Origin: an uncultured virus (IMG/VR IMGVR_UViG_3300008954_000038)
Lineage: Duplodnaviria; Heunggongvirae; Uroviricota; Caudoviricetes
Strand: one strand, 5' to 3'
Virus record (IMG/VR): IMGVR_UViG_3300008954_000038
DNA length: 64,000 nucleotides
Below are positions 1 through 61,837 of this stretch, piece after piece. A program made the translations under genes and the position numbers. The notes below the pieces were generated by a model, which saw only the letters and a program-made list of their open reading frames with translations, searched no databases and was not told the DNA's origin. Every line of letters begins with the position of its first letter. Positions within the stretch are counted from its first letter, which is position 1.

Positions 1-2925
1 ATCAAAGATGATACTGATGCTGTCTATGTAGGTCTAGATGCTTCTGCTGATATAATGTCACTTGGCTTCAGTAATTCTTTCGCTTCTACAAATTTAAGCA
101 TAGATACAGTAGGTAAGGTTGGTATAGGGACAACTACTCCAACTACTAGGCTTCATATTTCTTATCCAGCGGTAGGGCAAGATGGGTCTGCTGTTACCGC
201 GTTAACTACTACGACCGCAACCAATATAGGTGTTAAGTTATCATTTACCGGAGGAGCTAATTCGAATGGAAACATAATTGGTGGTATTTCTTTAGGTAAT
301 ACAGGGGAAGAATACGCAGGAATTTATGCTATAGACGCAGGCTCTTCTGCAGCTACTGACTTAGGATTATTTGTCGGGACCACAAGTGGAATAACAGAAG
401 CTGTTCATATAAGTTCTAATGGTAATTTTGGAATCGGGGTAGCGCCAAACACAGCTAATAAACTGGAAGTAAATGGCCAAGCAAGAGCTGCGACCGCAAT
501 GTTTGGTAATTCGTCAGTGAGCAATGTTGCTGCTAAACCTGTTCACATCAAATACGGAGGTCCTGCGTCACTTCGCCTTGAAGACTCTGAGGGCAGCAAT
601 TTAGTTTACGATCTAACTTCTGACTATGGCACAGGATTTATAATCAGAGACGAAACAGCAGGCACCAATCGACTAACAATATCCTCAAGCACTGGAGACG
701 CAACTTTCTCTAACGACGTAATAGTCACAGGAGACTTAACTGTAAATGGCACAGCAACTACAATTGATACTACTAATTTATTAATTGAAGACCCCTTAAT
801 GCTTCTGGCTAGAACTCAGTCTGGAACTCCTACTTTAGATAGTGGTTTGATTATAGAGAGAGGGAGTAGCACCAATGTTGGCATGATATGGGATGAGTCA
901 GGCGACGAGTTTGCTTTCATTAACACAACCGACACGGCAACGACCGCAGGCAATGTAACTATAGCAAGTTATGCGCCGTTGCAAATAGGTGCACTGACGG
1001 GTACTAGTGCTACGTTTAGTGGGGGTGTGGATGCACAGAGTCGTTATATTGTACAGCTAACAAGTAATGCTGGTGTATCCGATGTCTCCTACGGATCGTA
1101 TGTCAATGGCGCATGGGTAAACGGCAAGTCTGGGTCTAACAGTTACTTGAGTATAGCTGGTACTGGTGTCTTAAAATGGAACGCCGCAGGCATAGATGTA
1201 ACGGGAACGGGTTCATTCACAGGTGCGCTGACGGGTACTACTGCTGCGTTTAGTGGTAGCGACACAACGCCACAATTAAAAGTCAGCGGCGGCAACGCTA
1301 TGCTTGAGCTGGATGATACGACTAGCGGGAGTGCGTTTAATATATTCAGCAACGGCAACTGCTTGCGAATGGCCCGAACCGGGGCTGGCGGTTATCCAGC
1401 TAGTTATTTTGAGTTAAACACTACAGGTCAAGTTGGCATCGGAGTGGCGAGCGGAACGTATCAATTGAACGTAGGAGGGTCAGGAAACTTCAGCGGTGCG
1501 CTGACGGGTACTAGTGCTACGTTTAGTGGCGCAGTAACACCAACCACTTCCTATGGTAGCTCGTTAGGAAGCGGGTCTAAATACTGGAACACCCTTAACA
1601 CAGGTGTAATCACCGTTAAAGGGCAAAGCGGAGACGGCTTGATAACCCTGACCAATGGTGGCGGGACACAATCCATAAGAATGGATCAAAATTCTATCCG
1701 CACCACCACATCAAACAACATTACAATTTTTACGAGTGGCAACACTAACCAACTGCAACTAATTCAAAGCAATGGCTCGGTGAATATGAGCGGTGCGCTT
1801 ACAGTTGCGAGCGGAAATTCAACAGGGGATTTCACGGTTAGCGGTGCGTTGACGGGTACTAGTGCTACGTTTAGTGGCACGTTGACATCCTCCGCAGGTG
1901 TAGCAAACGGAACAAGTTATGATCGGATAGTAGTAGATGCCCAAACTGGAAATTATGGAGGCTTGTGGATTAAGAGCGATTGGAATTCGGGCAATCAAAG
2001 TCGGATTGGGTTTTATGGCACAAGCGCAAGCGCAAGAGGAATAGGATTCATTACCGATAACGGAACTTCTCCAGATGTATATATAAACGAAAACGGCAAA
2101 GTCGGCATCGGGACTACTGCGCCGGGAGCACTTTTAGATTCAGATACAGATACAGGTTGGTCAAGTGGCTGGGCAAACAATCTCAGATTGACGAGCCTTT
2201 ATTACCCCTGCCTACGGTTCTTTGCGCAGGCTAGCAACAAGACTTCCCTTATTGGAAACAATAATGATGGTGGTCTTTGGTTTGGAGTAAACGGTTCTGG
2301 AGATGCATACAGTGGTTATGGAATGGTTATTAAGCCTGACGGCAATGTCGGCATCGGGACTACTGGGCCGTCGCAAGCTTTAGAGGTGAAAGGAAGCAGT
2401 GCGGATACAAGAATTCTTGTTGATGATGGCGCAACTGGTGCTCCTATCTATATGAGATCTATGGGAAGCGGTGAAGCTGGATTATATTTAGGTGGCGAAA
2501 GCTCTTCAATAAACAGGACGGGCGGCGATTTAAATATTTGGGGCAATAGTGTTGACTTGGAATTAAGCACTAATAACGGTTCAACAGTAGCTTTGCGTAT
2601 AGACACGTCTCATAACGCCACATTCGCAGGAACAATAACAGAAAACTCTAGTATAGCATTAAAAGAAAATGTTTTTGATTTAAATACTACATTAGATAAA
2701 ATTAATAGAGTCCGCCCTGTTAGATACAACAAGAAAGTAAGCAAGGATAAAAAAGAAATAGGTTTAATTGCTGAAGAATTAGCTGAAATATTCCCAGAAT
2801 TAGTGGAAAATGATGAGAATGGTAACCCCACAAGTGTAAATTATACTAGAGCAGTGACTGTTTTATTTGATGGCTTCAAGCAAATGTACAAAGAATTAAA
2901 AGAAATAAAGGAAAAAATTAAATAA
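1..2925 (+). CDS. Tail fibre/spike protein with C-terminal intramolecular chaperone (Peptidase_S74-like); 5'-truncated
   Basis: Frame 1 is open from base 1 (IKDDTDAVYVGLDASADIMS...), so the gene starts before the window. It is G/S/T/N-rich with repeated G[KNQ]VGIGTT.P and GALTGTSATFSG motifs. The C-terminus from 2641 (ENSSIALKENVFDL...KINRVRPVRY...EIGLIAEELAEIFPELV...VNY plus a coiled coil) matches the S74 chaperone pattern. Confidence 0.9.
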   Translation: MKDDTDAVYVGLDASADIMSLGFSNSFASTNLSIDTVGKVGIGTTTPTTRLHISYPAVGQDGSAVTALTTTTATNIGVKLSFTGGANSNGNIIGGISLGNTGEEYAGIYAIDAGSSAATDLGLFVGTTSGITEAVHISSNGNFGIGVAPNTANKLEVNGQARAATAMFGNSSVSNVAAKPVHIKYGGPASLRLEDSEGSNLVYDLTSDYGTGFIIRDETAGTNRLTISSSTGDATFSNDVIVTGDLTVNGTATTIDTTNLLIEDPLMLLARTQSGTPTLDSGLIIERGSSTNVGMIWDESGDEFAFINTTDTATTAGNVTIASYAPLQIGALTGTSATFSGGVDAQSRYIVQLTSNAGVSDVSYGSYVNGAWVNGKSGSNSYLSIAGTGVLKWNAAGIDVTGTGSFTGALTGTTAAFSGSDTTPQLKVSGGNAMLELDDTTSGSAFNIFSNGNCLRMARTGAGGYPASYFELNTTGQVGIGVASGTYQLNVGGSGNFSGALTGTSATFSGAVTPTTSYGSSLGSGSKYWNTLNTGVITVKGQSGDGLITLTNGGGTQSIRMDQNSIRTTTSNNITIFTSGNTNQLQLIQSNGSVNMSGALTVASGNSTGDFTVSGALTGTSATFSGTLTSSAGVANGTSYDRIVVDAQTGNYGGLWIKSDWNSGNQSRIGFYGTSASARGIGFITDNGTSPDVYINENGKVGIGTTAPGALLDSDTDTGWSSGWANNLRLTSLYYPCLRFFAQASNKTSLIGNNNDGGLWFGVNGSGDAYSGYGMVIKPDGNVGIGTTGPSQALEVKGSSADTRILVDDGATGAPIYMRSMGSGEAGLYLGGESSSINRTGGDLNIWGNSVDLELSTNNGSTVALRIDTSHNATFAGTITENSSIALKENVFDLNTTLDKINRVRPVRYNKKVSKDKKEIGLIAEELAEIFPELVENDENGNPTSVNYTRAVTVLFDGFKQMYKELKEIKEKIK
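988..1878 (+). repeat. Four dispersed 36-bp direct repeats encoding GALTGT[ST]A[TA]FSG
   Basis: Copies at 988-1023, 1222-1257, 1495-1530 and 1843-1878; consensus ggtgcgctgacgggtactagtgctacgtttagtggN, conserved at most synonymous positions. Confidence 0.9.
2095..2370 (+). repeat. Two 30-bp direct repeats encoding G[KN]VGIGTT[AG]P
   Basis: ggcaaagtcggcatcgggactactgcgccg (2095-2124) vs ggcaatgtcggcatcgggactactgggccg (2341-2370): 28/30 identical. Confidence 0.85.
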
Positions 2926-5900
2926 ATGGCAAATCTTCTAGCAACTTGCGCGACTAACTACGGTTCTTCAACCATGTGTTGGAGTAGTACTGATATGAAG
3001 GCTGCTAACTTTTGGGTATGTAGTGGCTCTGATTCTTTTAAATTAGATCAAGGCGGTAGTGTTTTTGACATATGGGTTTCGGATAGTTCGATAAGTCATC
3101 AACCAAGAAATATTCTTCGCGCCTACAATCAGGGCAATTGTATAATATTGGGTCAAGGATGTAGTTCTAACACTAATGCTACTATACCAGTTTATGCATG
3201 TCATTGCTTACAATCTCCTACAATTACTGCTACTACTCGTATGTATACTCCTGAAATTCGAAACCCAGCAGCTGATGCTTATTTGGATTTACTTAGTGGT
3301 TGTCATGACTCTGGTTATGGTGGTATACATATTAAGAATTGTAATGGATCAGGTAAAGGTTATCTATATTGGGGTGGAACTAATTCTTTTGGTTTATTGC
3401 ATTGTGCTGGTGGCTGGGCAGTTAAATTAAACGGCGATACCTCTGTTTATCTATTTTACAACAACTCCCTTAAGCTACAAACAACTTCTGGTGGCGTAAC
3501 AGTTACAGGTGGGGCGACAGCCACAACTTTTGTCTGCGGTACTACTTGTCTTAAATCTCCTATAGTTTGTGCTACTAGTTGTATCAGAACAGAAAGTAAA
3601 CTTAAGTTTAATTATCCAAGTAATTGTGGACCATATTTAGAAACAGGTGGTACTTATACTGCTCCCAATTTACATTTAAAACATTTTAACGGAAGTACTG
3701 ATTGTACAGGGTTTTCTGCAGGGAGAGTTTGTGGTACAGTTTGTCTTTGTTCTCCTTATATTTGTGGTACTAGTTGTGTTAAAACTGGTCGTGTTTGTAT
3801 TTGTAATGGTAACAACTATTTAAATATGGTGTCGACGTGTGACGCTAATTATAACTTTAGTATATGCGCGATGTGGAGTTGGGCTTGTCCTCTTAATATT
3901 ACTAGTTATGGTTCTTCTATAATAAAGCAATGCTCTGGTCACGCTGTAACATCATTATGGGCTGCTGGTTCTGAGATTATTTGTCTTTGTAGTGGAGGAG
4001 CTTGTGTCGCTGGAATGGTATGCTCTCCTATAGTTTGTTATACAAATACCTTATGTGGTGGAAGACATGTTGATTCTTGTAATAAATATTACAATACTAG
4101 TAATTCTGTAGGGACTAACGTTACTACAACATTAGACGGCTGGTATCATTTACTTACATTTTCTGAAGGACAATCTCCTTTTTATGTTTCTTTAAAGAGT
4201 AGCGCTCATTCTAGTTCAACTTTTGCCATTACAATGGCATACTACGGATCAGACGTTGTAAACATTAATGTTTTAGGTGCGCAGTATGTTGCTAATAGTT
4301 GTTATCCTAACGCTAGATGTGTGAAAGTAGTAAAAGATGCAACTAACTCTAAATATGTTTTATTAGTTAATTTATATAAGTCAAGTAATACTACTTTTTG
4401 TGGTTTTGGCTTATGTACGTCTGTTTGGTCTCGTACAGGTGCAGCTCCTCCCTCTTTATGTGCTTGTTTATGTACTACTTGTACGGCATGTACTTGCTTG
4501 GGCGGGGTAAATCTTACGCTCACGGGCTTTCAGACAAATTGCTGTGTTACAGCTAGTATAATTTGTGGTACTAGTTGTGTTGACGCAGCAGTTGTAAAAA
4601 TCCCCGGTACTCAAACCATAGAATTAGCGTCTACTACGCATAGCTTAAAAGTCAAAAATTTGGGTTCTGCTGGCTCTAGTGGACTTGTATTACAGGGTAG
4701 CGGTGGAGCTCACCATCTGCAGCTATATGGAACAGGGTCACAGTATGGCTTCCTAGATGGGGCGTGGGCTGGCTGGGATATTAGAAAAACTGTTAATGGT
4801 AATTTAGACGTTTGGGTAGGTAGTAGTGGATTTATATGTGCATGTGAAGGCGGAGTATCGGCTGCTACTTGTGTTAAATCTCCTATAGTTTGTGGTACTA
4901 CTTGTGTTAATACTCCTACGGTTTGTGGTACTAGTTGCGTTCGGGGTAATTTAATTTATGGCAATCAGAACATTTGTTCTGCTGGTGTTTTATACGGTGC
5001 TGGGCTTTGGTGTATGCCTGTTGGCGGCGGTGGAAATCGGTTATTAATTGGTACTAAACGGGCACTTGAGGGTACAACAGATGGTGCGACACTTGGTTTA
5101 GGAGAAGATTATACATGCGTATGGAGTAGAGCTGGTTGTTTTGAGGCTGCTGGTTGTGTTATTTCTCCTATAGTTTGTGGTACTACTTGTCTTAGAGGAG
5201 CTGTAATTTGTGCTACTAGTTGTATACTGCTTTGTACGAAGGGTATTATGGGAGGAGATGCTGGAGGAGGGAATCTTAATTCAGCTGAGAACAAGGCGAG
5301 CGCTATTTATTATTGTCGTTATAATTGCGCGGCGACCAATAAACCAGTTACGGTCAATAATGCTAATGGCATATTGACAATGTTAACCCATTCAGGGCCT
5401 TACGGAAAACAAATTGCTTTTGGTGATAATAATGATCTATATATAAGAAAAATTACCAATAATTCATTCGGGACATGGTATAAAGTAATTACTACATATA
5501 ATTGTGGCTCAGGTGATATTTCGGGCGTTACGGCAGGTGCTGGGTTAGCTGGTGGTGGTAGTAGCGGTACTGTTACCCTTTGTCACTCTGATACGTCATC
5601 GGCTTCTAATATTGACACAAGTGGTGCTGCTGTAGTCAATCAACTAAATGTTGATACATACGGACATGTTACCACACTAAATACGCGTAACCTTACTCTA
5701 GCCAATTTGGGCTATACTGGAGCTACTAACGCTAACTACATCACTAACAATAGCCAGTTATCTAATGGTTGTGGTTATACTACAGTATCTGTTGGTACTG
5801 GTTCAGGTAACGCTCATAGAGGTGATCATGGTGTAACAGCTTATAATCATAGTCAATCGAAACATCTATGCTGTACTACTTATTGGAATATTGATAATTG

Positions 5901-8900
5901 GCTTAGTTACAACGGTGGAGGAGGTTTATATTGGCCAGCTTGCGCGAGTTATCACTGGTATCCGACATCTAATGCATGCATGACATTAAGAAATAATCAA
6001 ACCAGTCTTGCTATTAGATTTTTTACATCACATGGTGCAGATACAACTATGGGTCATTTGTATGGTGATTGTTCTCATAACTTTGGTTTATTAGATTGTG
6101 GTGGTGCTTGGAGAGTACGGGTTCATGGTACAAGTAGTATAAGCTTATGTAATCCTACTTGCGTATATGGTACTCTTACTGGTAATGGTGAAATTCGTTC
6201 TAGTACCAACTGTACTACTGGGTCTGGCTGGGCCACAAGGACAGCAGGATGTATATATGCAGGTGGATATATTCGTGGTCAACAATGGGTTTGTAGTGAT
6301 GGTTATTTACGCGCAGGTACATATGTGAGCGGATACACATGCGTTGTTGCTGGTACTTGTATGTGTGCAGACTCGTCAGTATGCGGAGCTCAATGTGTTA
6401 AATCTCCTATAGTTTGTGCTACTAGTTGTGTTCAATCTGTTTGTTCAAAGATAAATTCAACAGGCTCAGAATACCATGCATTGGCAAATTGCAGCACAAA
6501 TGAATTATACATACAGCCTCACACTTACACTCGTATATTAAAGGGGTATGGTTATACTTCTAGTAATCGAAAGATGTGCGCTTCCGACACGTCTTTGCTA
6601 ATCGCCAGCGGAGGTATTGTATGTGCTTGTACTGCCCTCCACTCTCCTATAGTTTGTGCTACTAGTAGTATTAAGAGCCCTAACATATCTTGCTTCTGGT
6701 CTCCGCTTTCCGGTAATGACGATTGGCAGTCTAGCCCAATAACCATAAGAGAGCGTGGGTTGAATAGCTCTGCTTGTAATCATTGCAAGTATGCACCAAA
6801 CATAAATTTTCATTGGGGTGGCATTTATTCTAATTCGTTATGGATGAGTAATGACGGTTGGCTACATTGGGGTAATTATGATAGTGCTGGTATCCCAGCT
6901 ACGTCTAGTGGTTTTTGTACTGATCGTCTTTGTGCTGTTACTGCCGTTTGTTCTCCTACAGTTTGTGCTACTACTTGCATTCAATCTCCTATAGTTTGTG
7001 GTACTAGTTGTGTTAGAGGGGAGGCTGTTTATGCTAATAATTGCGTATGCGCAAATATAATAAAAAATAAAGCAGGTAACGCTTATCTAAACGTATATAG
7101 TGGCTGTACTAATCCGGGAGGAACTCTGTATCGTGATTGTAGCGGGAACAACAGGGGGTATGTGTATTTTGATAGCACTGCTAATTTTGGTCTATTAAGT
7201 TGCTCTGGTTCTTGGGCTGTGCGGATTATAGGAAATACTAGCATGATGTTATGCAAGCCTACTTGTGTAGCGGGTGCTCTTACTGGTAGTTTGACCATAT
7301 GCGCTACTACTTGTCTTTGTTCTCCCATAATTTGCGGTACTAGTTGTGTCAGAGGAGGTGTTCTTCAGTCTACTGGTATGGTTACGGGTACTTGCACTTG
7401 TGGTACCGTATGTCTTAGAACACCGTATTTAAGAGTTGACGGTAGTTCATTGCATTGCGGACATACTGTTATTAGTTCTACTGCTAATAGTTGTATGCCT
7501 TTGACTCTTCAATCTGCTGAAACTAATACTGCTTGTATAGGTATAGAATTTAAGGATAATTACGGCAGTGGTGCTTATGGTCAAACAGGTTGTCTCTTTT
7601 CCTGTCATGGTGACACAAACTTAGGTCAAACTGTTGGGTTTCATTTTGGTTTTATTACAAGCGAGACTTCGTTAGGAGTTGTTGTTCGAAATACCAATGC
7701 TGCTTCTGGTTTCTATACTGGTTCTGGTAATAGTTACATAAATAATGCTTGTGTTAAATCTCCTACACTTTGCGGTACTACTTGTATTAGGAGTGCTTGT
7801 CTGCATTCAACAGCTACTATAACAGGTGACTCTGGTGTTTATTCCCCCATAATTTGCGGTACTACTTGTGTTAGAGGTGGTGTACTTTGTGCTACTACTT
7901 GCGCAAAAGTCAACAAACTTTGCTTATTGAATGACGTAAGTGGAGACATGGCCAATGGTATAGTCCTCGGTAGTAACGCGGGTATACCTCAAGCTGCTTG
8001 GGGCGAAAGTAGCACCACTACTGGTCGAATCGAGATAGGTTTGCCAACTAAGGATGGGCAAGGTGGATCTGTTCATTACGGAATGGTGCAGGTTCAAGTG
8101 GATGTTTATGAATACAATGGCAACAATACAATGAGCTTTCTTGTAGGTGGCCACAATTGGGGTCGTAACTGGCACAATAAAGGTATTCATATGATAGGCG
8201 GCTGCACCGACAAAACTTTAAAACTTGCGTATCATGAATGCGGTGGAACCTGTAACGGTAGATACGTTATATTAATTGGAGAGCCCGGTAGTAGTTGGAA
8301 CTACGGTTCTGTTCATGTTAGAAGAATAAATAATGGATTATATTATGCTGGTGCGATGGATTTCGGAACACCCATGTATGTGAAACGCGTTACTTGTGCG
8401 GATTCTTATTACATGAACACTACCGGTGATCTGCGACCCAGTTCGAAGAGTATGGCTGGATACCAATGCGCACTTACTTGTTCTTCAACGGCTATAGGGT
8501 GCGCTAGTTCTTGTTTTACGGCTCCACATGTTTGTGGTACTACTTGTATTAGGAGTGCTTGTCTGCATTCAACAGCTACTATAACAGGCGACTCTGGTGT
8601 TTATTCTCCTATAGTTTGTGGTACTACTTGTGTTAGAGGAGCTTGTGTGCATGCAACAGGTAATATACGTGGTGAAGAGATTTGTTCTGGTTCTTGGTTT
8701 AGAAATGAAAGCAGTGGTGAAGGTTTATATAATTCTGCTACAGGTCAACATTTTTATTCTGATGGAGATGATTATTGGAACGTTGCAGGAGGAACCTCGG
8801 CAAATGCTATTAGATTCAGAGACGAGAACGCCGGTACTGTGCGTGGAGTTATATACGCTAATAGTAGTAACGAGATAGGCTTTTTAGATCAAGGTCAAGA

Positions 8901-10785
8901 CTGGACTTACAAAGCCAAAAACGATGACGGCCACTACTGGTATACTAACAACACTGCAACAAGAATGTGCTTAAACACAAGTGGACAACTTTTTGTTTGT
9001 GGGTGTGTTCAAACACAAGTACTTTGTGGTACTTCTGCTGTTCGAGCCCCGGAAATATGCGCTACTAATTGGTTCAGAAATGCAGACGCCGGGGAAGGCT
9101 TATACAACGAATCTTCTTGTTCTCATTTTTATTCAGCTGGTGATAATTATTGGCATATTAATAACAGGTGTACTGCGAGCTCTGGTGGCCTAGTTTTTTA
9201 CAAAGCTCATAATGCTTCGCAAGGTCATCTTACTAATCGTCGGGGTTACATATATTGGGATGGTACTGCTAATTTTGGTTTATTATCATGCGCTGGAAAT
9301 TGGGGTATAAGGTTAGAAGCTGATACAAATATATGCTTAGGCAAAAGAACCTTTGTATGTACTTGTGTTTGTTCTCCTATAGTTTGTGCTACTTGTCAAT
9401 TTAAGGGTAATTGCCTGCATATTGATGGAGGTACTCAGAACACATTGAGCGATGCGACAGTTTACATTACAGCTACTAACAATGCTGATTGGGGGCTAGT
9501 AGTCAATAAAAATAATAGCAGCGCTTCTGAATATGGTATAGATTCTAGAGTGGGTTCGACTTCTGTTCTCGCTTATAGCGCTTTGTTTGCTGGTACCCGG
9601 AAGTTCTTGGTTGGCTATAATTGTTTGTGTCACAACACTATGATTTGTTCTCCCGCAATCAAAGCTTCTAGTTATATGAATAGTGGGAAGTTCTGTTCTG
9701 GCAGTACTTACATGTGCAATATATGTGCTCACGTAGCTGGTAACGTAACAGCGACTGCATTTTATGGAAGTGGAGCTAATTTAACAAACCTTCCTAGTAG
9801 TGGTTGGAACGCTTCTGGTGGTTGTACATGTACCTCTTGGACAAGTTTGAGAACATCTGTAGGTTATTGTACATTGGAATGTGAAAGTGCTGCTAATAGT
9901 AACAACGTCGTTTTTGGTGGTAATTCTTTCCGTAAAAGCTCGACTGGTGTTGAGAATGCAGTACTTGGTTCTAATGTTGGTAGTTATTCAACAGTTTTCC
10001 CACTTGTTTCGTATAATACGTTCGTAGGTAATCGAATTGCTTCATATCTAGGTGCTAATACATGTTGCAATGCTCAATATAATGTTTCAATGGGATACCA
10101 AAGTATGGCCAATTTATCTACGGGTTGTTATAACACAGCCGTCGGAACGTGGGCATTAATAAGTAATACCAATAGATTGACTTCCAAGATGAATACAGCG
10201 GTAGGTATGTATGCCCTTAAAAGTATTTCAACATCTACTGGTTGTAATACTGCGATAGGGGCATGCGCAGGGTACGCCACCGCTGGTTCTAGAAATACAT
10301 ATATTGGATATAAAGCAGGATATAACCATACCGGGTCTGATACAACGATTATTGGAGCCTGTGGTCAATCGTGTACATGTATATGTGGCAATACATATAT
10401 CGCAGGTTCTTTGAGTAAGAGTTCAGGTTGTTTCTTGATATCACATCCGGATCCAGCAAAGAAGGATAGAATGAATCTATCACATTCTTTTGTCGAATCC
10501 CCAACAGAAGGTGATAATATATATAGATGGCAAGTAAGTACTGAGAATTGCAGAAGCGTTGTTGAGCTTCCAACCTATTATAAATTTTTAAATAAAAATG
10601 ATATGGTTTGGGTATCTCCACATAGGAGCTTTGGGGCAGCTTATGGTAAAGTTACTGAAGATCAGGAATGTTTAATAGTCTGTTCTAATGAAGACGGTTG
10701 CTATAATGTATTATTAATAGGCACACGTAAAGACGAAGCTGTAAGAAATTGGAATGGTGTAGAAAGTTTAGTGATTAATAATTAA
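2926..10785 (+). CDS. Giant cysteine-rich modular tail fibre/adhesin (2619 aa)
   Basis: The start directly abuts the upstream fibre stop. Recognisable fibre modules include a knob-like LYIRKITNNSFGTWYKV, GDISGVTAGAGLAGGGSSGTVTL, two WFRN...GEGLYN units, NTA[VI]G..AL beta-roll repeats and a C-terminal GSLSKSSG.F.I.HP...L.HSFVESP domain. Hand count: about 34 Cys in the first ~390 aa. Confidence 0.8.
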   Translation: MANLLATCATNYGSSTMCWSSTDMKAANFWVCSGSDSFKLDQGGSVFDIWVSDSSISHQPRNILRAYNQGNCIILGQGCSSNTNATIPVYACHCLQSPTITATTRMYTPEIRNPAADAYLDLLSGCHDSGYGGIHIKNCNGSGKGYLYWGGTNSFGLLHCAGGWAVKLNGDTSVYLFYNNSLKLQTTSGGVTVTGGATATTFVCGTTCLKSPIVCATSCIRTESKLKFNYPSNCGPYLETGGTYTAPNLHLKHFNGSTDCTGFSAGRVCGTVCLCSPYICGTSCVKTGRVCICNGNNYLNMVSTCDANYNFSICAMWSWACPLNITSYGSSIIKQCSGHAVTSLWAAGSEIICLCSGGACVAGMVCSPIVCYTNTLCGGRHVDSCNKYYNTSNSVGTNVTTTLDGWYHLLTFSEGQSPFYVSLKSSAHSSSTFAITMAYYGSDVVNINVLGAQYVANSCYPNARCVKVVKDATNSKYVLLVNLYKSSNTTFCGFGLCTSVWSRTGAAPPSLCACLCTTCTACTCLGGVNLTLTGFQTNCCVTASIICGTSCVDAAVVKIPGTQTIELASTTHSLKVKNLGSAGSSGLVLQGSGGAHHLQLYGTGSQYGFLDGAWAGWDIRKTVNGNLDVWVGSSGFICACEGGVSAATCVKSPIVCGTTCVNTPTVCGTSCVRGNLIYGNQNICSAGVLYGAGLWCMPVGGGGNRLLIGTKRALEGTTDGATLGLGEDYTCVWSRAGCFEAAGCVISPIVCGTTCLRGAVICATSCILLCTKGIMGGDAGGGNLNSAENKASAIYYCRYNCAATNKPVTVNNANGILTMLTHSGPYGKQIAFGDNNDLYIRKITNNSFGTWYKVITTYNCGSGDISGVTAGAGLAGGGSSGTVTLCHSDTSSASNIDTSGAAVVNQLNVDTYGHVTTLNTRNLTLANLGYTGATNANYITNNSQLSNGCGYTTVSVGTGSGNAHRGDHGVTAYNHSQSKHLCCTTYWNIDNWLSYNGGGGLYWPACASYHWYPTSNACMTLRNNQTSLAIRFFTSHGADTTMGHLYGDCSHNFGLLDCGGAWRVRVHGTSSISLCNPTCVYGTLTGNGEIRSSTNCTTGSGWATRTAGCIYAGGYIRGQQWVCSDGYLRAGTYVSGYTCVVAGTCMCADSSVCGAQCVKSPIVCATSCVQSVCSKINSTGSEYHALANCSTNELYIQPHTYTRILKGYGYTSSNRKMCASDTSLLIASGGIVCACTALHSPIVCATSSIKSPNISCFWSPLSGNDDWQSSPITIRERGLNSSACNHCKYAPNINFHWGGIYSNSLWMSNDGWLHWGNYDSAGIPATSSGFCTDRLCAVTAVCSPTVCATTCIQSPIVCGTSCVRGEAVYANNCVCANIIKNKAGNAYLNVYSGCTNPGGTLYRDCSGNNRGYVYFDSTANFGLLSCSGSWAVRIIGNTSMMLCKPTCVAGALTGSLTICATTCLCSPIICGTSCVRGGVLQSTGMVTGTCTCGTVCLRTPYLRVDGSSLHCGHTVISSTANSCMPLTLQSAETNTACIGIEFKDNYGSGAYGQTGCLFSCHGDTNLGQTVGFHFGFITSETSLGVVVRNTNAASGFYTGSGNSYINNACVKSPTLCGTTCIRSACLHSTATITGDSGVYSPIICGTTCVRGGVLCATTCAKVNKLCLLNDVSGDMANGIVLGSNAGIPQAAWGESSTTTGRIEIGLPTKDGQGGSVHYGMVQVQVDVYEYNGNNTMSFLVGGHNWGRNWHNKGIHMIGGCTDKTLKLAYHECGGTCNGRYVILIGEPGSSWNYGSVHVRRINNGLYYAGAMDFGTPMYVKRVTCADSYYMNTTGDLRPSSKSMAGYQCALTCSSTAIGCASSCFTAPHVCGTTCIRSACLHSTATITGDSGVYSPIVCGTTCVRGACVHATGNIRGEEICSGSWFRNESSGEGLYNSATGQHFYSDGDDYWNVAGGTSANAIRFRDENAGTVRGVIYANSSNEIGFLDQGQDWTYKAKNDDGHYWYTNNTATRMCLNTSGQLFVCGCVQTQVLCGTSAVRAPEICATNWFRNADAGEGLYNESSCSHFYSAGDNYWHINNRCTASSGGLVFYKAHNASQGHLTNRRGYIYWDGTANFGLLSCAGNWGIRLEADTNICLGKRTFVCTCVCSPIVCATCQFKGNCLHIDGGTQNTLSDATVYITATNNADWGLVVNKNNSSASEYGIDSRVGSTSVLAYSALFAGTRKFLVGYNCLCHNTMICSPAIKASSYMNSGKFCSGSTYMCNICAHVAGNVTATAFYGSGANLTNLPSSGWNASGGCTCTSWTSLRTSVGYCTLECESAANSNNVVFGGNSFRKSSTGVENAVLGSNVGSYSTVFPLVSYNTFVGNRIASYLGANTCCNAQYNVSMGYQSMANLSTGCYNTAVGTWALISNTNRLTSKMNTAVGMYALKSISTSTGCNTAIGACAGYATAGSRNTYIGYKAGYNHTGSDTTIIGACGQSCTCICGNTYIAGSLSKSSGCFLISHPDPAKKDRMNLSHSFVESPTEGDNIYRWQVSTENCRSVVELPTYYKFLNKNDMVWVSPHRSFGAAYGKVTEDQECLIVCSNEDGCYNVLLIGTRKDEAVRNWNGVESLVINN
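3556..9396 (+). repeat. Dispersed SPIVC[GA]T[ST]C linker repeats
   Basis: The exact 15-mer tctcctatagtttgt occurs at 3556, 4024, 4879, 5164, 6403, 6643, 6985, 8605 and 9373. Variants occur at 3751, 6952, 7321, 7759 and 7843. Confidence 0.9.
7771..8639 (+). repeat. 107-bp direct repeat pair flanking an internal fibre module
   Basis: 7771-7877 vs 8533-8639, about 6 mismatches by eye; both encode CGTTCIRSACLHSTATITGDSGVYSPI[IV]CGTTCVR. Confidence 0.92.
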
Positions 10786-10805: not shown

Positions 10806-11171
10806 ATGGGATTAAAAAAAGGCATAACATTAATAGGCGGAATAGATTTGCCAGATGCTTATCATAGAATAAAGGAAGCGCAATTAGAGCTAACATCTAA
10901 TGTCGAGCTTGAGTTAAATGAAGACGGTGAATCTACTTCGGTAGTCATAAGAGAAGATTCTTCGTTTTCGGTACAACTTGCTTCTTATAAAGATTACACC
11001 TATAGGTCAACTTCAGCAGAGCCAGCTGCTATAAGAGAACGGCATTATAGTTTACCCCTGTCTGCTTTAAATGATCTCTCTTCTTCGTCTAGTGATTCTA
11101 TAAAAACTAAAATCTACACATATTTAAAAACACTAGATGAATTCTCTGGAGCAGAAGATGTTCTTGAGTAA
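10806..11171 (+). CDS. Small fibre-associated protein (putative fibre assembly chaperone)
   Basis: 121 aa, directly downstream of the fibre, with AAGGA upstream. G.DLPDAYHRI...IYTYLKTLDEFSGAEDV resembles small proteins commonly found after phage fibre genes. Confidence 0.6.
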   Translation: MGLKKGITLIGGIDLPDAYHRIKEAQLELTSNVELELNEDGESTSVVIREDSSFSVQLASYKDYTYRSTSAEPAAIRERHYSLPLSALNDLSSSSSDSIKTKIYTYLKTLDEFSGAEDVLE

Positions 11172-11731
11172 TGTTAGATTTAAAAGATTATTTTAAAAAA
11201 ATATATCTGATAACTAGTTATCACACCAAAGACAGGCTTGATCGGACTCTTTCTCATCTTAAGAAGAATGGAATAGAGCCAGAATTATTTATAGCCCCTT
11301 TCAAATATTACTTTCCTCATTTTCATAAGTTTAATACAGAGAATGTATGGCCCGGAAAACTATCTCTTGCGTGTGCGTATGAACAATTGTTTCAAAAATG
11401 TATATTAGAAAATACAAAAACAGCATTATTCATAGAAGACGATGTTCTTTTAATGGATGGATGGCAAGATAGAATAAAGGTAGAATGGGAATTGGATAAC
11501 TGGTGGTATGTCGTTAAGGCTGACGCGCAGACTCATTTTTTTGGCATGAAGCAGGAAGCTATGAAAGAGTATTTGAATCGGTTTGCTATGAATTTTAATT
11601 CCATAGACTTTCAAATAAATATGCTAAAATCTGTCAGAACTTCAGATTGTATAGCTAAGCAAAGAAGCATCGAAGGGGTAACTCCTTCTGCAATTGACGT
11701 AGAATCAGATAAATACAGACTTAAATTTTAA
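11171..11731 (+). CDS. Glycosyltransferase family 25-like protein (short, GT-A)
   Basis: FKKIYLIT...KDRLDR...ELFIA...GKLSLACAY...ALFIEDDV follows the GT25 (LgtB/Lic2A-type) pattern YVINL..R.DR...G..GC..SH...ALILEDD. Coupled to the upstream gene by a TAATG overlap. Confidence 0.7.
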   Translation: MLDLKDYFKKIYLITSYHTKDRLDRTLSHLKKNGIEPELFIAPFKYYFPHFHKFNTENVWPGKLSLACAYEQLFQKCILENTKTALFIEDDVLLMDGWQDRIKVEWELDNWWYVVKADAQTHFFGMKQEAMKEYLNRFAMNFNSIDFQINMLKSVRTSDCIAKQRSIEGVTPSAIDVESDKYRLKF

Positions 11732-11774: not shown

Positions 11775-12842
11775 GTGAACGACAAAAACATTATCTTCCA
11801 TGTAGAGGGCGGAATCGGCAAGAATATTATGGCAACTGCGGTCGCAGCAGCCATTAAAAAGAAGCACCCAGACAGAGATATTATCACCATCGGCTCTTGG
11901 CCAGCTATCTGGTTTAATAACCCAAATGTCGAGAGATTTTACCAATTAGGTAATACTCCTTACATTTTTGAAGATTATATTAGAGATAAAGATACTCTAA
12001 TTTACAAACAAGAACCATACCACCACCACGGTTATATCAATAAAAAAGTTCATTGTATTCAAGCTTGGTGCGAGCTTCTTGGGGTTGACTATAACAACGA
12101 AAAGCCAGAATTTTATTTAACTCATTCGGAGTCAGAACAGGCCAGAATGCAGTTCGGTTCTTCTGATAAGCCTATTTTCTTAATTCAAACAAATGGTGGT
12201 CCAATGGGTCCAGACAGAGCCCCCATGTCTTGGGTTAGAGATGCGCCTTTGCCAACTGTTTTAAAAATGATTGAGCCTTTTGCTCAGGATTACAACCTTG
12301 TTCAAATAAGAACAGAAAATCAACCCGGCTTTCAAGATATGCCTTGGATAGCGAGCCCTAATATTAGAGAAATTATAGCTCTTTTAAAATGGTCGAGCAA
12401 GAGGTTGCTTATTGATAGCTTTGCTCAACATGCAGCTATGGCTTTCGGTAAAAAGTCGACCGTGCTTTGGCCAATGGATAATGTAAAAGCTTTAGGTTAC
12501 GAGTTTCATGATAATATTGTATCAAATGTAACTTTAAAGAAAACTCATTTGATTGATAGTTATTTAGGTGATTTGGACATATCTGGCCAACCTCATATGT
12601 GCCCATTTAAGGATGATGATATTTTTGATGTAGACAAAGCTATTAAAAGTTTGAAGAGACAAAAGGATACTAAGTTCCCGAAGAGCATGATGAATATGGC
12701 TCCACAACAAATGCAGCAACAGGGGTGTGGGCCGGGACAGCCTTGTCCGCCTCAAGGTGCGCCACAACAGGGAATGCCCATGGCTCCGATGCAGCCACAA
12801 CAGGCTCCAATTTCTCAACCCGAACCCGTCACAACAACTTAA
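11775..12842 (+). CDS. Glycosyltransferase family 9-like (heptosyltransferase-like, GT-B) with Q/P/M-rich tail
   Basis: N-terminal GGIGKNIMATAVAAAIKKKHPDRDII...FNNPNV (GT9 GLGD-type loop). C-terminal IREIIALLKWSSKRLLIDSFAQHAAMAFGKKSTVLW matches the DS..H.A.A motif. Confidence 0.75.
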   Translation: MNDKNIIFHVEGGIGKNIMATAVAAAIKKKHPDRDIITIGSWPAIWFNNPNVERFYQLGNTPYIFEDYIRDKDTLIYKQEPYHHHGYINKKVHCIQAWCELLGVDYNNEKPEFYLTHSESEQARMQFGSSDKPIFLIQTNGGPMGPDRAPMSWVRDAPLPTVLKMIEPFAQDYNLVQIRTENQPGFQDMPWIASPNIREIIALLKWSSKRLLIDSFAQHAAMAFGKKSTVLWPMDNVKALGYEFHDNIVSNVTLKKTHLIDSYLGDLDISGQPHMCPFKDDDIFDVDKAIKSLKRQKDTKFPKSMMNMAPQQMQQQGCGPGQPCPPQGAPQQGMPMAPMQPQQAPISQPEPVTTT

Positions 12843-12875: not shown

Positions 12876-13202
12876 ATGGCAATTGAATATGAATTCTCAA
12901 GAGTAAATCCGCTTTGCACATGCGATTCAGATGGATCTAATACTAAAACTCACAAAATAGAAGTAAGTATGAAAGCTTCTGAAACTGGTGCTGGTGGTCA
13001 TGTTTTTGAGGCTTATGCTAATGGAGATATAGAACTTACCGGAGATGATTGCATTGATCCTACTGGGTTAGATTTGGCAACCTTGCTAAACGATTACGCG
13101 ACCGAAAATAATTGGAAAACTGATCTAGCTGCTTCGATTAGCGCCCAACAAGCCGAAGCTCATGAGTGGACAGGTCACTTAGTTTCACCGGCAGTTTCAT
13201 AA
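12876..13202 (+). CDS. Small acidic fibre-associated protein, paralog 1 (CxC motif)
   Basis: MAIEYEFSRVNPLCTCD...WKTDLAASISAQQAE; aligns by eye with the next ORF and resembles small phage proteins ending in L.AQI.AQK.P that flank fibre genes. Confidence 0.65.
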   Translation: MAIEYEFSRVNPLCTCDSDGSNTKTHKIEVSMKASETGAGGHVFEAYANGDIELTGDDCIDPTGLDLATLLNDYATENNWKTDLAASISAQQAEAHEWTGHLVSPAVS

Positions 13203-13216
13203 GGAGAATTTTTAAA

Positions 13217-13531
13217 ATGGCTATAGAATATACATTTAGTAGAGTTGAGGCAAAATGCGTTTGTAAAGACGGAGACCCAGATGAGGGTAAAGTTTGCGAA
13301 GTTGTAGTAGGGATGACCGCTGTAGATGGAGACCATAGCGCGTATATTGACACTACGGTTTCGTTAACTGGTGATGCTAGGAAGGCTCCGGCTGACTTAG
13401 ATCTTTCCGCAATTTGTAATGGAGCAGCTACCGACGGGGACTGGAAAACTTCTCTTGAGTCGCAAATTAGCTCACAAAAAGAAGCACCTGAGAGCTGGTC
13501 GGGAGTATTGACTACTCCGTCTGTGTTGTAA
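13217..13531 (+). CDS. Small acidic fibre-associated protein, paralog 2 (CxC motif); start corrected to 13217
   Basis: AAGGAG lies upstream of the ATG at 13217. MAIEYTFSRVEAKCVCKD...WKTSLESQISSQKEAP aligns with paralog 1 from its first residue. Confidence 0.7.
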   Translation: MAIEYTFSRVEAKCVCKDGDPDEGKVCEVVVGMTAVDGDHSAYIDTTVSLTGDARKAPADLDLSAICNGAATDGDWKTSLESQISSQKEAPESWSGVLTTPSVL

Positions 13532-26241: not shown

Positions 26242-28152
26242 ATGGCGTCATCAATCAATTTAACTAATGTAGAAGTTTTAGACTACAGTCAGACAGCAAA
26301 CTTTATACAAGGGGGTATGTATCAGTTTGGCCGAACAGTCAGCTTAAACCTCACCGCCTTCATGTTTCCTGTTAGTGGGGGTAGTGTATCTGACAAATTT
26401 AAAGAGATAGACGATTTACAAAAAAGTCATCTAACTGAAATATTAGATAATGGATTTGCTGACTCTATTACTCTTGGTTCTGGCTCGGGTTCTGAAACTA
26501 TAAATAATGTAAAAATATTATCCTACAGTTTTCCTACCGAACCAGCCTTAAACAATAAAATAAATCTTCTAAGAGTAAACATGGCTCTTGAATTCAGGGA
26601 AGGTATGGACAACAGGAATAAATTGCCTAATAGCGACAGTTCTTACGACGGTTTAGAGAGCCTTGCTTCTGCAGGAAATTTTGAAAGTTTTTCAGAAAAT
26701 TTCAGTTTTAGCTTGACTAACAATTGGGAATATTCTTTTGGTCAAAATGTTAATTTTACTCTAAGGCAAACAAGCTCTTCTTCTTCGGACCTAGTTACAA
26801 AGGCAAAAAATTTAATAAAATCATCATTTTTAGTGGACCCTCCTAAACTTGGTTATTTGGACGCTAGGTATAATAACTTTATACAAATAATAAAACAAAG
26901 GGGGAGACTTAACGAGTCCTACGACTCAATAACTAATACCTACTCTTTTTCTAAAGCTGTTAATACTAAATCTGGCGCTTACTCAACGGAACTTAGGGGG
27001 GACAATTGGTCGGCCGATCTAAGCTACTCTCTTTCGACAGACCAAAGCGGAACAGTTTCTGTAAACGAAGCAGCAAGTATTCAGTCTTTTTTAACCGCTT
27101 CCTCTACGGAAACAACAGAATCCCTATATAAACATGCGTACGATGGGTTTATTGAGGTAAAAGAAGGGGCGCATTCAAGGTGCCAAAAAATATTTGAAGA
27201 TTTTGTTCAAGGTAACAATACAGAATGGATACCAAAAGACTTAGAATGGAATCAAGAAGATAATCTTAAAAGTAAATATATTTCTTTTGGTAGAAATATA
27301 GATAGGATTAATGGATCTATTAGTTATTCTGTGGGCTTCACTAATAATCCAAGAATGCACGAAGAGGCTATTTTCGAGTATACTGTATCGGCATCGCAAG
27401 ACCAAGACAAGATTACTCAAGTAACCGAAAACGGAACAATAAAACCTTATGACGAAAACAGAAACGCAGATTTTGACGCAAAAGGTTTGTACGATAAATT
27501 TACTGCTTCAGATGATGTTTTAACGAGGATTACTCCTTTATGGGAATCAATGAGAGATAAGGGTGATTCATATGTAGCGCCTCAGACAGCAGTTACGCCC
27601 GGTATTTTTATCGATCAAACATCGGCATATAAGCTAGAGCATCCTAGGAACTTAGTCTCTTCTAATATTTCTTTTCCTGCTTATGGGCTAACTATAAGCT
27701 ACAGCTTCGTTTACTCTGATGACCATACATTAAGAAATGAAACGTACTTGAGGAAAATAGAAAAAGAAGAAAATTATAAATTGCCTACCTTACACAGGGA
27801 AAACGTTATTGCTCCAAATATAAAAGAAACAAATTACGACGCAAATCAAACACAACAAGGATCCAAATCTATAGAATTTAATTGTATTTTCAAAAGAAAC
27901 CCTAACTCAAATAAAATAAACAATGCTCATGTAGTTTACTTAAAAAGCGCTACAGACGATATTTATAGTAAGGTGAAACAAGAGGTTGAAAAATCAGCTT
28001 TTGTAAAAGGTAAACAGGTAGTAAAAGATGATATATCTTGGTTTCTAGAAAGCTTAAGTTATAATTTTGATTCTGAATATAAATTTGGCAGTTCTAGTAG
28101 CCTTGGTTTTGTTGATAAGAGGGGCGTCTCGGCTAGAGCTTTGGAGTATTGA
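26242..28152 (+). CDS. Distal tail/hub-like beta protein, paralog A
   Basis: First gene after the TMP; S/T/F/Y-rich beta strands; shares F[ED]YTVS...D.I..V...GTI and I[ST]YS..F motifs with the next ORF. Confidence 0.55.
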   Translation: MASSINLTNVEVLDYSQTANFIQGGMYQFGRTVSLNLTAFMFPVSGGSVSDKFKEIDDLQKSHLTEILDNGFADSITLGSGSGSETINNVKILSYSFPTEPALNNKINLLRVNMALEFREGMDNRNKLPNSDSSYDGLESLASAGNFESFSENFSFSLTNNWEYSFGQNVNFTLRQTSSSSSDLVTKAKNLIKSSFLVDPPKLGYLDARYNNFIQIIKQRGRLNESYDSITNTYSFSKAVNTKSGAYSTELRGDNWSADLSYSLSTDQSGTVSVNEAASIQSFLTASSTETTESLYKHAYDGFIEVKEGAHSRCQKIFEDFVQGNNTEWIPKDLEWNQEDNLKSKYISFGRNIDRINGSISYSVGFTNNPRMHEEAIFEYTVSASQDQDKITQVTENGTIKPYDENRNADFDAKGLYDKFTASDDVLTRITPLWESMRDKGDSYVAPQTAVTPGIFIDQTSAYKLEHPRNLVSSNISFPAYGLTISYSFVYSDDHTLRNETYLRKIEKEENYKLPTLHRENVIAPNIKETNYDANQTQQGSKSIEFNCIFKRNPNSNKINNAHVVYLKSATDDIYSKVKQEVEKSAFVKGKQVVKDDISWFLESLSYNFDSEYKFGSSSSLGFVDKRGVSARALEY

Positions 28153-28153
28153 T

Positions 28154-61808: not shown

Positions 61809-61837
61809 AGTATAACTTAAACTTGGGTTTTTGTCAA
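61809..61837 (-). promoter_or_regulatory. Near-consensus sigma70 promoter TTGACA-N17-TATACT
   Basis: The minus strand reads TTGACA (61837-61832), aaaacccaagtttaagt, TATACT (61814-61809), gtagatat, ATG (61800). Confidence 0.85.

Follow-up and report, generated by a model that had tools for sequence, protein, structure and literature searches.

Tail fibres set the host range of phages and are generally poor in cysteine (Cys). In a 64,000-nucleotide (nt) stretch of DNA from an uncultured tailed virus (IMG/VR record IMGVR_UViG_3300008954_000038; the whole stretch is called the window below), we analysed a giant gene whose product departs from that rule:

2926..10785, + strand: Cys-rich giant fibre, 2619 amino acids (aa), 187 Cys (7.14%); a mosaic of repeated modules and Cys-bearing connectors

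With the fibres of the T4 gp34/gp37 type and those carrying an S74 chaperone, the protein shares a position in the tail module, giant size, a mosaic build from repeated modules and a predicted homotrimeric state. As in other modular trimeric fibres, its sequence diverges faster than that of its neighbours (39% versus 52–88% identity to the related contig L001). It differs from such fibres in its Cys content, about 7% compared with 0.06–0.57% in seven of eight Cys-poor relatives, and in having an 11-mer connector of its own, a distinct C-terminal domain, no S74 domain and a downstream cassette of candidate glycan enzymes. We noted no His-x-His metal motif in it, which we take to be a further difference from the T4-type fibres.

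Cys-rich proteins are known elsewhere. The Tenebrio antifreeze protein, Giardia variant surface proteins and keratin-associated proteins consist of short periodic repeats with two Cys each, and their disulfides lend these long-lived extracellular proteins rigidity and protease resistance. These Cys-braced solenoids and coat proteins are monomeric or eukaryotic secretory proteins that are oxidised in a dedicated compartment, whereas the giant fibre is predicted to be a homotrimer assembled in the cytoplasm and has an 11-residue unit; we saw no evidence of kinship to them in sequence or fold. Among phages, cyanophage Pam3 has its tail fibres attached through disulfides and needs these bonds to retain them, and dithiothreitol (DTT) releases the fibres (PMC9942802); phage 7-7-1 has a capsid disulfide network with 2.58% Cys, compared with 0.9% and 0.7% in the proteomes of T4 and A511 (PMC12796354). 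In Pam3 and in the Agrobacterium phages 7-7-1 and Milano, Cys form covalent cross-links in extracellular virion parts, fibre attachment included, whereas for the giant fibre they are proposed, and our proposal of oxidative clamping draws on these published cases. Their figures are 1.45% Cys for the proteome, 2.58% for four capsid proteins and one Cys involved per chain of the Pam3 fibre, as against 7% over 2619 residues in the giant fibre and 0.58% in the other proteins of the window.

The substrates of the adhesin heptosyltransferases, TibA and AIDA-I, are beta-helical and encoded beside their enzymes. The locus resembles the pairs that TibC and AAH form with TibA and AIDA-I, where a GT9-type GT-B enzyme acts on a large repetitive adhesin (PMC4358343). 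It also resembles mycobacteriophage capsid and tail glycosylation and the S-linked glycocins, in that phage glycosyltransferase genes stand beside structural genes. It differs from these in that a candidate GT25-like and a GT9-fold gene, often with a sulfotransferase gene, are linked to fibre genes.

We read the protein, at a probability of roughly 0.45, as a long tail fibre for receptor binding, from an uncultured siphovirus-like marine phage, whose Cys serve as clamps, probably through disulfides formed after lysis. The best-supported part of this reading is the structural account, a long and thin trimer of intertwined chains in which the connectors would place Cys next to each core layer. 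The analysis shows the content, conservation and motif of the Cys, the family, the trimer model and the gene linkage; we infer that disulfides form, when they form and on what the enzymes act. The family to which the fibre belongs breaks the rule of Cys-poor fibres about 10-fold, in a conserved and patterned way, and the uncultured marine phages that carry it are apparently abundant. A search of full-text literature that left most subscription journals outside its scope found no account of tail fibres rich in Cys or of a fibre paired with a GT9-fold gene. The initial reading of the DNA from its sequence only (the sequence-only reading) had likewise known of no described system, and a description in subscription journals is possible.

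The Cys content of the giant fibre is exceptional within the window. The remaining 27 open reading frames (ORFs) of the window together hold 107 Cys in 18468 residues (0.58%), and the binomial tail for the giant fibre is ~1e-133. The sequence-only reading had estimated 8–9% Cys, which the exact count lowers to 7.14%; its hand count of about 34 Cys in the first ~390 aa was exactly right, as was its count of 2 Cys (0.21%) in the neighbouring 956-aa fibre. The Cys are also, as it had said, not limited to one domain, since each 100-aa block has 3–13 of them, and the motifs it had quoted (GTVTLCHSDTS, QLSNGCGYTT, four copies of FGLL[HDS]C.G.W, SKSSGCFLISHP and YYCRYNC) are all present in the translation. 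Its claim of a few hundred thiols along one fibre amounts to arithmetic: 187 Cys in each of three chains would give ~560 thiols per predicted trimer.

Spacing of the Cys is not random. Gaps between them are mostly 4, 7 and 2 residues, with 35 CxxxC pairs against 13.4 ± 3.4 expected (1000 shuffles, maximum 24) and 25 Cx6C pairs against 13.2 ± 3.2 (1000 shuffles). The protein shows strong internal repetition along its 2619 residues and found no match in Pfam, the PHROGs or the PDB sequences; a search of the ESM Atlas gave weak leads to T4 fibre families (scores 0.88–0.92, low recognition). We considered an artefact of genetic code or reading frame and ruled it out by the frame, which is uninterrupted over 2619 codons (7.9 kilobases, kb), by the retention of Cys in homologues and by the normal Cys content of the other window genes. 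Cys is encoded by 139 TGT and 48 TGC codons. The AT skew is negative (–0.09 to –0.18) only over positions 4000–10000 of the window, that is across the Cys-rich gene, and mostly positive over other + strand genes, which is consistent with the excess of TGT codons.

The fibre is laid out as follows:

2926..3582, + strand: N-terminal region, approximately residues 1–219; 30–34% identity to the N-termini of several Cys-rich homologues
6913..7425, + strand: representative module, residues 1330–1500; connector pair, FGLL domain, connector pair; the piece modelled as a homotrimer
6964..7029, + strand: example of a paired connector, residues 1347–1368, CATTCIQSPIVCGTSCVRGEAV
8662..9360, + strand: two tandem WFRN...GFLD/FGLL modules, approximately residues 1913–2144; also match Cys-poor giant Peptidase_S74 fibres
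9733..10425, + strand: Gly/Asn/Ala-rich repeats, approximately residues 2270–2500; resemble repeats of Cys-poor fibres and adhesin-like proteins
10420..10782, + strand: C-terminal domain, residues 2499–2619, with motifs HSFVESPxEGDNIYRW, LNKNDMVWVSP and YNVLLIGTRKD

In BLASTP searches, fibre segments 1–219 or 1–288 aligned from residue 1 of the homologues P0008, P0009, P0013 and P0014; residues ~1–219 would be the attachment end of the fibre. The tandem modules were 31–56% identical to P0030, P0031 and P0036, in agreement with a profile search, and the Gly/Asn/Ala-rich region gave multiple BLASTP segments to P0029, P0032, P0033, P0035 and P0036. An AlphaFold2 (AF2) model of the C-terminal domain was all-beta with a mean confidence (pLDDT) of 66.9; Foldseek found no significant fold match for it, the best (E 0.25) being adenovirus fibre heads and the receptor-binding domain of the Pam1 tailspike. 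This head domain carries Cys as well, two of which are invariant (C84 and C88 of alignment A5).

The most regular Cys lie in the connectors. A hidden Markov model (HMM) of the module, seeded with residues 1330–1500, found 14 copies in the giant fibre and ~240 across the family, each unit being a connector pair, a globular domain of the FGLL or WFRN...GFLD type and another connector pair. The connector is an 11-mer, [ST]-P-x-[VI]-C-[GA]-T-[ST]-C-[VIL]-x, usually paired, and over the ~240 module copies its Cys are 63–87% conserved and its central Thr ~75%; Cys of the globular domain are conserved at 22–26% only. The fibre has 13 copies of a strict core, [SATG]Px[IVLT]C[GAS]T[STAN]C[VILFA], which start at residues 211, 276, 652, 663, 747, 1160, 1343, 1354, 1466, 1612, 1640, 1866 and 1894. 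With a looser pattern we counted 140 connectors in 31 Cys-rich proteins and none in 29.5 kilo-residues of Cys-poor relatives. Both Cys were present in 93 of the 140, the first only in 36, the second only in 6 and neither in 5. Where a connector Cys is replaced, Y, I, L, F or N usually takes its place; all but N would be expected at semi-buried packing positions.

We modelled three copies of residues 1330–1500 from a 22-row alignment, together with three controls. The homotrimer reached interface scores (ipSAE) of 0.91, 0.91 and 0.92 compared with 0.00 for the best control, with a pLDDT of 90–91 and contact agreement of at least 94%. Of proteins solved as pairs, 20 of 30 reached the mark used for such models, as did 1 of 23 solved as single chains, a calibration that is rough for a model with its own alignment and three copies. 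The result supports, and does not prove, that residues 1330–1500 form a trimer. In the model the connector segments (residues 1–52 and 105–169 of the piece) are nearly all interface. The inter-chain contacts of lowest predicted error involve V1357, G1359, V1363, I1458, L1464 (to its own copies), I1469 and V1475 in the connectors, and V1413, L1423 of FGLL, V1432 and I1434 in the globular part. Connector positions 4, 6 and 10 are thus predicted to build the trimer core with the Cys at positions 5 and 9 adjoining it, and we infer Cys that encircle the thin core or point outward at its corners, next to the conserved Thr.

Relatives of the fibre show that these features are not peculiar to one genome. 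Among proteins of 1440–4584 aa we obtained 34 matches, 26 of which have 4.7–7.4% Cys; seven of the other eight have 0.06–0.57% and match short parts of the query only, and the last has 3.0%. In the metagenome loci, taken as the best 80 of 123 relatives of the C-terminal domain, 65 parts of fibre ORFs of at least 300 aa carried that domain, and 46 of them had at least 3% Cys, 8 had 2–3% and 11 less than 2%. (Loci L001, L009 and L119 are one contig, as are L131, L134 and L135.) The 99-kb IMG/VR contig L001 belongs to a close relative of the whole phage, with neighbouring genes 52–88% identical and a fibre ~39% identical (6.8% Cys). L002, an IMG/VR contig of 119 kb, encodes three consecutive Cys-rich giants with 4.8%, 6.1% and 7.4% Cys. 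Judged from sequence, then, the Cys-rich fibres are a family of dozens to hundreds of proteins and not a one-off. Within it, Cys identity reaches 56.5% in alignments of Cys-rich homologues that are only ~25–40% identical overall, and Cys is the fifth most conserved type of residue, behind W, G, P and Y. These values and the 63–87% conservation of connector Cys bear out the earlier suggestion of selection for Cys along the fibre.

That suggestion had gone with a second, that standard fibre motifs had been rewritten with Cys in place of small residues, and here the outcome was mixed. We searched 1.84 billion representative proteins with the module profile; 1775 matched at E ≤ 1e-3, a large number of which are giant fibres poor in Cys, and 748 matched at E ≤ 1e-10. 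Cys content was bimodal in the best 150 matches: 29 had at least 3%, one had 1.5–3% and 120 had less than 1.5% (median 0.33%). The WFRN/FGLL module is therefore widespread and normally Cys-poor, and the residues replaced are mostly small or polar, so that part of the suggestion stands. At columns that hold Cys in the Cys-rich group, the Cys-poor group has S/T/G, A/S/Q/N/G and T/S/A, but also Y (112 of 150 at one column), R/T and H/S/G, so that the replaced residues include S, T, G, A and N and in addition Y, R and H. For 11 covered Cys positions of the C-terminal domain, Cys-poor relatives that are 45–61% identical have C in 32 aligned cells, T in 17, S in 16 and A in 11. What did not hold is the idea of rewriting for the most conserved Cys, which lie in a connector without counterpart in Cys-poor relatives (140 occurrences versus 0). 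The Cys-poor matches cover the central domain only (approximately profile columns 25–135), and their connectors are different, of the type APIFYD..NT.YY.DP or GNDGSGSGLDAD. The globular modules thus appear to be ordinary modules with sprinkled Cys, and the most strongly selected Cys to be those of a family-specific connector.

Under the reading we favour, the fibre would be a homotrimer of ordinary modules, namely WFRN/FGLL globular knots, knob-like domains, Gly/Asn-rich repeats and a C-terminal head, joined by connectors whose positions 4 and 10 would stack on the three-fold axis with the two Cys flanking. During folding in the cytoplasm the Cys would remain in reduced form. On lysis into oxic seawater they would oxidise to disulfides within and between chains, which would lock the slender shaft of intertwined chains and shield the fibre, very long as it is, from unfolding and from proteases. 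The GT25-like and GT9-fold enzymes encoded downstream would most likely glycosylate the fibre, probably on Ser/Thr, for example on the conserved Thr between the two Cys, by analogy with the TibC-type adhesin heptosyltransferases. The identity of the protein as a fibre is supported by its position between an S74 fibre and the tail module and by modules that it has in common with Peptidase_S74 giants (P0030–P0032, P0036), by its 51-aa match to an annotated Synechococcus phage fibre and by the homotrimer model. If disulfide clamps are indeed formed, phages would use the oxidising shift at lysis to cure a long fibre covalently, which would bear on the persistence of marine virions and on the engineering of robust fibres.

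Several observations weigh against this proposal. Only one Cys is kept in 42 of the 140 connector motifs (the first in 36, the second in 6). Covariation between Cys columns in presence and absence was weak (best phi 0.44) and confounded by subfamily, and no CxxxC pair of the connector stood out. There was no preference for an even number of Cys, with 187 in the giant fibre and 16 even and 10 odd counts among the 26 Cys-rich homologues, some of which are fragments. Taken together, these three points give no indication of obligate, fully paired disulfides. In the trimer model the best contacts place aliphatic residues, not Cys, on the axis. Finally, an Erv1/ALR sulfhydryl oxidase was not found in 5 related viral records, a result that is uninformative as the control genomes were silent too.

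Directly downstream of the fibre lies a group of small and medium genes, for which the sequence-only reading had named two glycosyltransferases and CxC genes:

10806..11171, + strand: 121-aa gene; homologues at the same place in 5 other loci
11171..11731, + strand: 186-aa GT25-like candidate glycosyltransferase (GT-A type, EDD motif); between the fibre and the GT9-fold gene in 14 other loci
11775..12842, + strand: 355-aa GT-B-fold protein, nearest to GT9 heptosyltransferases, with a P/Q-rich tail; conserved downstream partner of the fibre
12876..13202, + strand: CxC protein 1, 108 aa, starting MAIEYEFSRV; one of a paralogue pair
13217..13531, + strand: CxC protein 2, likely start MAIEYTFSRV; inside the listed ORF 13166..13531, start placed by alignment with its paralogue

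Both enzyme assignments fall below the Pfam cut-offs. The 186-aa protein matches PF01755 weakly (E 0.007, 16.7 bits against a cut-off of 24), as do all seven aligned members of its family (best E 1.1e-4), and the family profile found no match among PDB sequences. The 355-aa protein gave nothing in Pfam, PF01075 included, even at E 10, and a 33-sequence profile of its family found no match among PDB sequences; its 434 homologues are all without annotation. Its AF2 model (pLDDT 85.9) nevertheless has a GT9-like fold, with Foldseek matches to 3tov (E 4.8e-10, template modelling (TM) score 0.57), then WaaF (1psw), WaaC and TibC. As it has this fold without a Pfam match, we call the protein GT9-fold rather than a member of GT9. 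So of the two glycosyltransferases named earlier, one is GT9-like by fold and the other weakly GT25-like. Invariant in the 33 sequences are I-D-S-x-x-Q-H, R-D and G-G-x-G-K, which may resemble the D-[ST]-G..H region of GT9.

Resemblance of the 355-aa model to TibC itself is weaker. TibC chains matched the model less well than 3tov did (E 4.6e-7 to 7.5e-7, TM 0.46–0.48, 13% identity), and the nearest folds are of the lipopolysaccharide (LPS) heptosyltransferase type (3tov, 1psw). The hallmarks of TibC-like bacterial autotransporter heptosyltransferases (BAHT) are an N-terminal beta-barrel, a beta-hairpin thumb and an iron-finger motif (PMC4358343). The 355-aa model opens with a predicted Rossmann strand (residues 4–9) and helix (14–30), and the N-terminal beta-barrel is absent from it.

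The CxC genes and a further enzyme complete the picture of a cassette. The CxC family comprises 35 ORFs in 19 loci, always directly after the GT9-fold gene and with the CxC near the N-terminus; the second paralogue of the window has a weak DUF7936 match (E 0.1). Homologues of a sulfotransferase, recognised as PF13469 in L002, occur in 66 of 163 de-duplicated loci. The co-occurrence of GT25-like, GT9-fold and CxC genes with the fibre, about which the sequence-only reading had asked, was borne out as a conserved cassette behind it. In L002 (182–17026 and 18153–18971) the giants are of 2528, 1337 and 1718 aa, followed by a GT9-fold gene and the sulfotransferase gene (E 1.9e-13). Neither Pfam nor the PHROGs contain the 11-mer connector, the C-terminal domain or the 355-aa family, and defining these would give hundreds of metagenomic proteins an annotation.

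We examined how closely the GT9-fold gene is tied to the fibre and to Cys. The C-terminal domain of the fibre travels with this gene, which follows the fibre in 57 of the 63 metagenome loci that have at least 1200 nt downstream (within 2.5 kb in 54), and likewise in the window, L001 (88% identity) and L002 (53%). It is absent from the loci of Cys-poor relatives, L003–L008. In a viral set, made of the best 80 of 550 GT9-fold relatives on viral contigs, we sorted stop-to-stop ORFs of 300 aa or more according to how far they lie from the gene. Those with at least 3% Cys made up 38 of 67 within 600 nt (median 3.26%), 15 of 61 at 0.6–2 kb, 30 of 111 at 2–5 kb and 18 of 155 at 5–11 kb (median 0.5%). 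At least one such ORF was present in 50 of the 80 loci, with up to 9.4% Cys in a 464-kb contig. Only one Cys-rich locus of this set, the contig of L001, matched the module HMM of the giant fibre. Among 25 Cys-rich ORFs scanned, 5 had Peptidase_S74 (one just below cut-off), 2 collagen repeats, 1 a YadA head and 3 UspA1 or beta-roll repeats, so that by their domains the Cys-rich neighbours of the GT9-fold gene look fibre-like and mostly unrelated to the giant fibre. In a second set, of metagenome-assembled genomes (MAGs), 39 of 73 GT9-fold contigs had a Cys-rich ORF within 10 kb, a weaker enrichment with its peak (18 of 73 ORFs) at 0.6–2 kb.

Cys-rich fibres are nevertheless not the only companions of the gene. 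Among fibres with the same C-terminal domain, the GT9-fold gene was present with 42 of 43 at 3% Cys or more, 5 of 6 at 2–3% and 7 of 10 below 2%, and tandem ~800-aa fibres with 0.5–1.7% Cys precede it in several loci; L151, L157, L158, L162, L164 and L168 have it beside Cys-poor fibres. The gene therefore does not need Cys, and we read the enzyme as a partner of fibres, acting in their modification or assembly, that occurs unusually often with Cys-rich ones but does not require Cys. All these loci were picked by homology, so shared ancestry is possible, and the Cys-rich background rests on the within-locus distance gradient, the Cys-poor relatives and published proteome values. The linkage of GT9-fold gene and fibre, together with the unrelated Cys-rich neighbours, points to an unstudied system of fibre modification.

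Four further observations concern these loci. Fibre-like ORFs unrelated to the giant fibre, with 7.4–9.4% Cys and on contigs of 74–465 kb, lie near GT9-fold homologues at L012:14122–19578, L013:3587–8440 (– strand), L017:2747–6535 (Peptidase_S74) and L030:5408–9199. L151, L157, L158, L162 and L164 hold arrays of three Cys-poor paralogous fibres of ~700–1040 aa with the same C-terminal domain, then the GT9-fold gene; the arrays resemble a host-range cassette with several fibres. Single-linkage clustering of ORFs of up to 700 aa in L010–L168 gave as its largest cluster 173 ORFs from 108 loci (median 375 aa, median 3.5% Cys), which may be short fibre paralogues or fragments. Loci L169–L241, from the genome collection, are all MAG contigs, mostly labelled Bacteroidota (Flavipsychrobacter, Chitinophagaceae, Sphingobacteriales) and often several per MAG; each is either a phage contig that was binned together with its host or a copy in a bacterium, and they give our only hint on the host.

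The Cys might instead be plain packing residues beside the trimer core, free or haphazardly oxidised, in what would be a lineage-specific type of connector. The Y, I, L and F replacements, the CxxxC pairs that often have lost one Cys (42 of 140), the lack of clear pair covariation or parity preference and the APIFYD..NT.YY.DP connectors at the same places in Cys-poor relatives all agree with this, and a single substitution separates Cys codons from those of Gly, Ser and Tyr, which are abundant. On the other hand, the same positions could be filled equally well by Ala, Ser or Val without the risk of oxidation, and Cys are enriched at globular-module positions where relatives have S, T, G, N, R or H. 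Since Cys content is bimodal (29, 1 and 120 of 150) and its enrichment recurs in unrelated fibre types (S74, collagen, YadA-like), a shared selective cause is indicated rather than neutral choice among small residues, and we regard simple packing as unlikely. Alternatively, the Cys could be acceptors for S-linked glycosylation by the GT25-like and/or GT9-fold enzymes, with a hydrolysis-resistant thio-glycoside coat as the product. The linkage of GT9-fold gene and fibre (57 of 63 loci, plus the window, L001 and L002, and absence from L003–L008) would fit, as would the concentration of Cys-rich ORFs within 600 nt of the gene (38 of 67 versus 18 of 155 at 5–11 kb), mostly non-homologous to the giant fibre. 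A sulfotransferase homologue in 66 of 163 loci suggests a glycan pathway, and in the model the Cys flank core positions and may face outward beside the conserved Thr. Yet the GT9-fold family also sits beside Cys-poor fibres (7 of 10 loci below 2% Cys, and L151, L157, L158, L162, L164 and L168), these loci were chosen by homology to the glycosyltransferase, so that common descent may account for the linkage, and conserved Cys are often replaced by hydrophobic residues, not by Ser/Thr. No sequence context around Cys common to the unrelated Cys-rich fibres was found. The S-glycosylation of Cys raised by the sequence-only reading therefore gained no specific support, and we consider it distinctly unlikely. 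The known S-glycosyltransferases belong to GT2, not GT9, and have small-peptide substrates. The acceptor of TibC is Ser. This GT9-type protein glycosyltransferase, whose structure is solved, acts on the adhesins TibA and AIDA-I (PMC4358343), which further speaks against Cys as acceptors. A broader version, to which we assign a similarly low likelihood, has the cassette (GT25-like, GT9-fold and, in relatives, sulfotransferase) put sugars on outward Cys or on the Thr between Cys. It would be the first phage fibre with thio-glycosylation or with glycosylation framed by thiols, and this chemical modification would have arisen convergently in S74, collagen-like and YadA-like fibres of many aquatic phages, including those with jumbo genomes.

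Metal coordination along the trimer (Fe, Zn or Cu), comparable to the His-x-His iron sites of T4-type fibres and serving stability or the mimicry of metal ligands for uptake receptors, appears less likely again. The CxxxC and Cx6C spacing is regular and would be repeated three-fold around the axis, and the setting is marine, for which metal-bearing fibres have come under discussion as the 'Ferrojan Horse' idea. The modelled axis, in contrast, is filled by aliphatic side chains (L1464 with L1464) and so offers no obvious metal site; His is not enriched (2.25% of the fibre), and the frequent loss of one paired Cys would break a coordination site. Trace metals in seawater are, moreover, scarce for ~560 thiols per fibre. 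A redox device, in which thiols or disulfides exchange with the host envelope at adsorption or act as a reduction-triggered switch, we hold to be very improbable: the bulk of the Cys is in connectors of the shaft, a long way from the distal tip, and no thiol-oxidoreductase partner was identified, even though the C-terminal head has Cys, two of them invariant (C84, C88), and in Pam3 reduction frees the fibres and triggers contraction (PMC9942802). That the protein is no virion fibre, being a secreted or cell-surface adhesin or a mis-called frame, is scarcely credible. Pfam and the PHROGs do not recognise it, and no RNA run is listed among those with the gene, which is uninformative, but dozens of homologues keep both Cys and the 7.9-kb frame, the tail-module synteny is shared by the window and L001, its modules are common to S74 fibres, and the model predicts a trimer with confidence.

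The gene stands in what is the structural region of a very divergent tailed phage. Upstream of it lies another fibre gene, whose stop codon abuts the start of the Cys-rich fibre:

55..2925, + strand: Cys-poor upstream tail fibre, 956 aa, 2 Cys; C-terminal Peptidase_S74 intramolecular chaperone domain

This fibre matches PF13884 (E 7e-11, residues 865–917) and PHROG tail-fibre families. After the S74 fibre and the Cys-rich fibre come six small or medium genes, head-tail and tail genes, a tape measure of 2063 aa, large distal-tail proteins and a 6243-aa ORF. The Cys-rich fibre thus lies inside the tail module, 9 kb upstream of the tape measure (PF10145, E 1.9e-30, and PHROG tape-measure families), and L001 has the same order. 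Most ORFs of the window have no Pfam or PHROG match. Megablast found no relative among isolated phages, nor did a 371-aa structural protein of the window match any of them; the tape measure is 24–28% identical to those of assorted phages. With the fibre, tblastn gave one match only, to 51 aa of an annotated tail fibre of Synechococcus phage S-WAM2 (E 5e-6). Two sequencing runs contain at least half of the sequence words of the fibre gene, X1 with 0.98 (possibly the source) and X2, from the same study, with 0.71; both are labelled marine metagenome, and we judged the habitat from such large shares only, leaving runs with small shares aside.

Other parts of the window call for brief mention. The 6243-aa ORF (41976–60707, + strand, 0.53% Cys), downstream of the distal tail genes, is unusually large for an ORF of a phage. 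Two large ORFs, 26242–28152 and 28067–29962 (+ strand), overlap by 86 nt in different frames, the second starting with TTG; the start may be mis-set, or a distal tail gene may undergo programmed frameshifting. A separate glycosyltransferase gene, which is not part of the fibre cassette, lies at 61834–63018 (– strand; Glyco_transf_9, PF01075, E 2.7e-11), and beside it an ORF at 63024–63986 (– strand) has a weak match to DUF4214.

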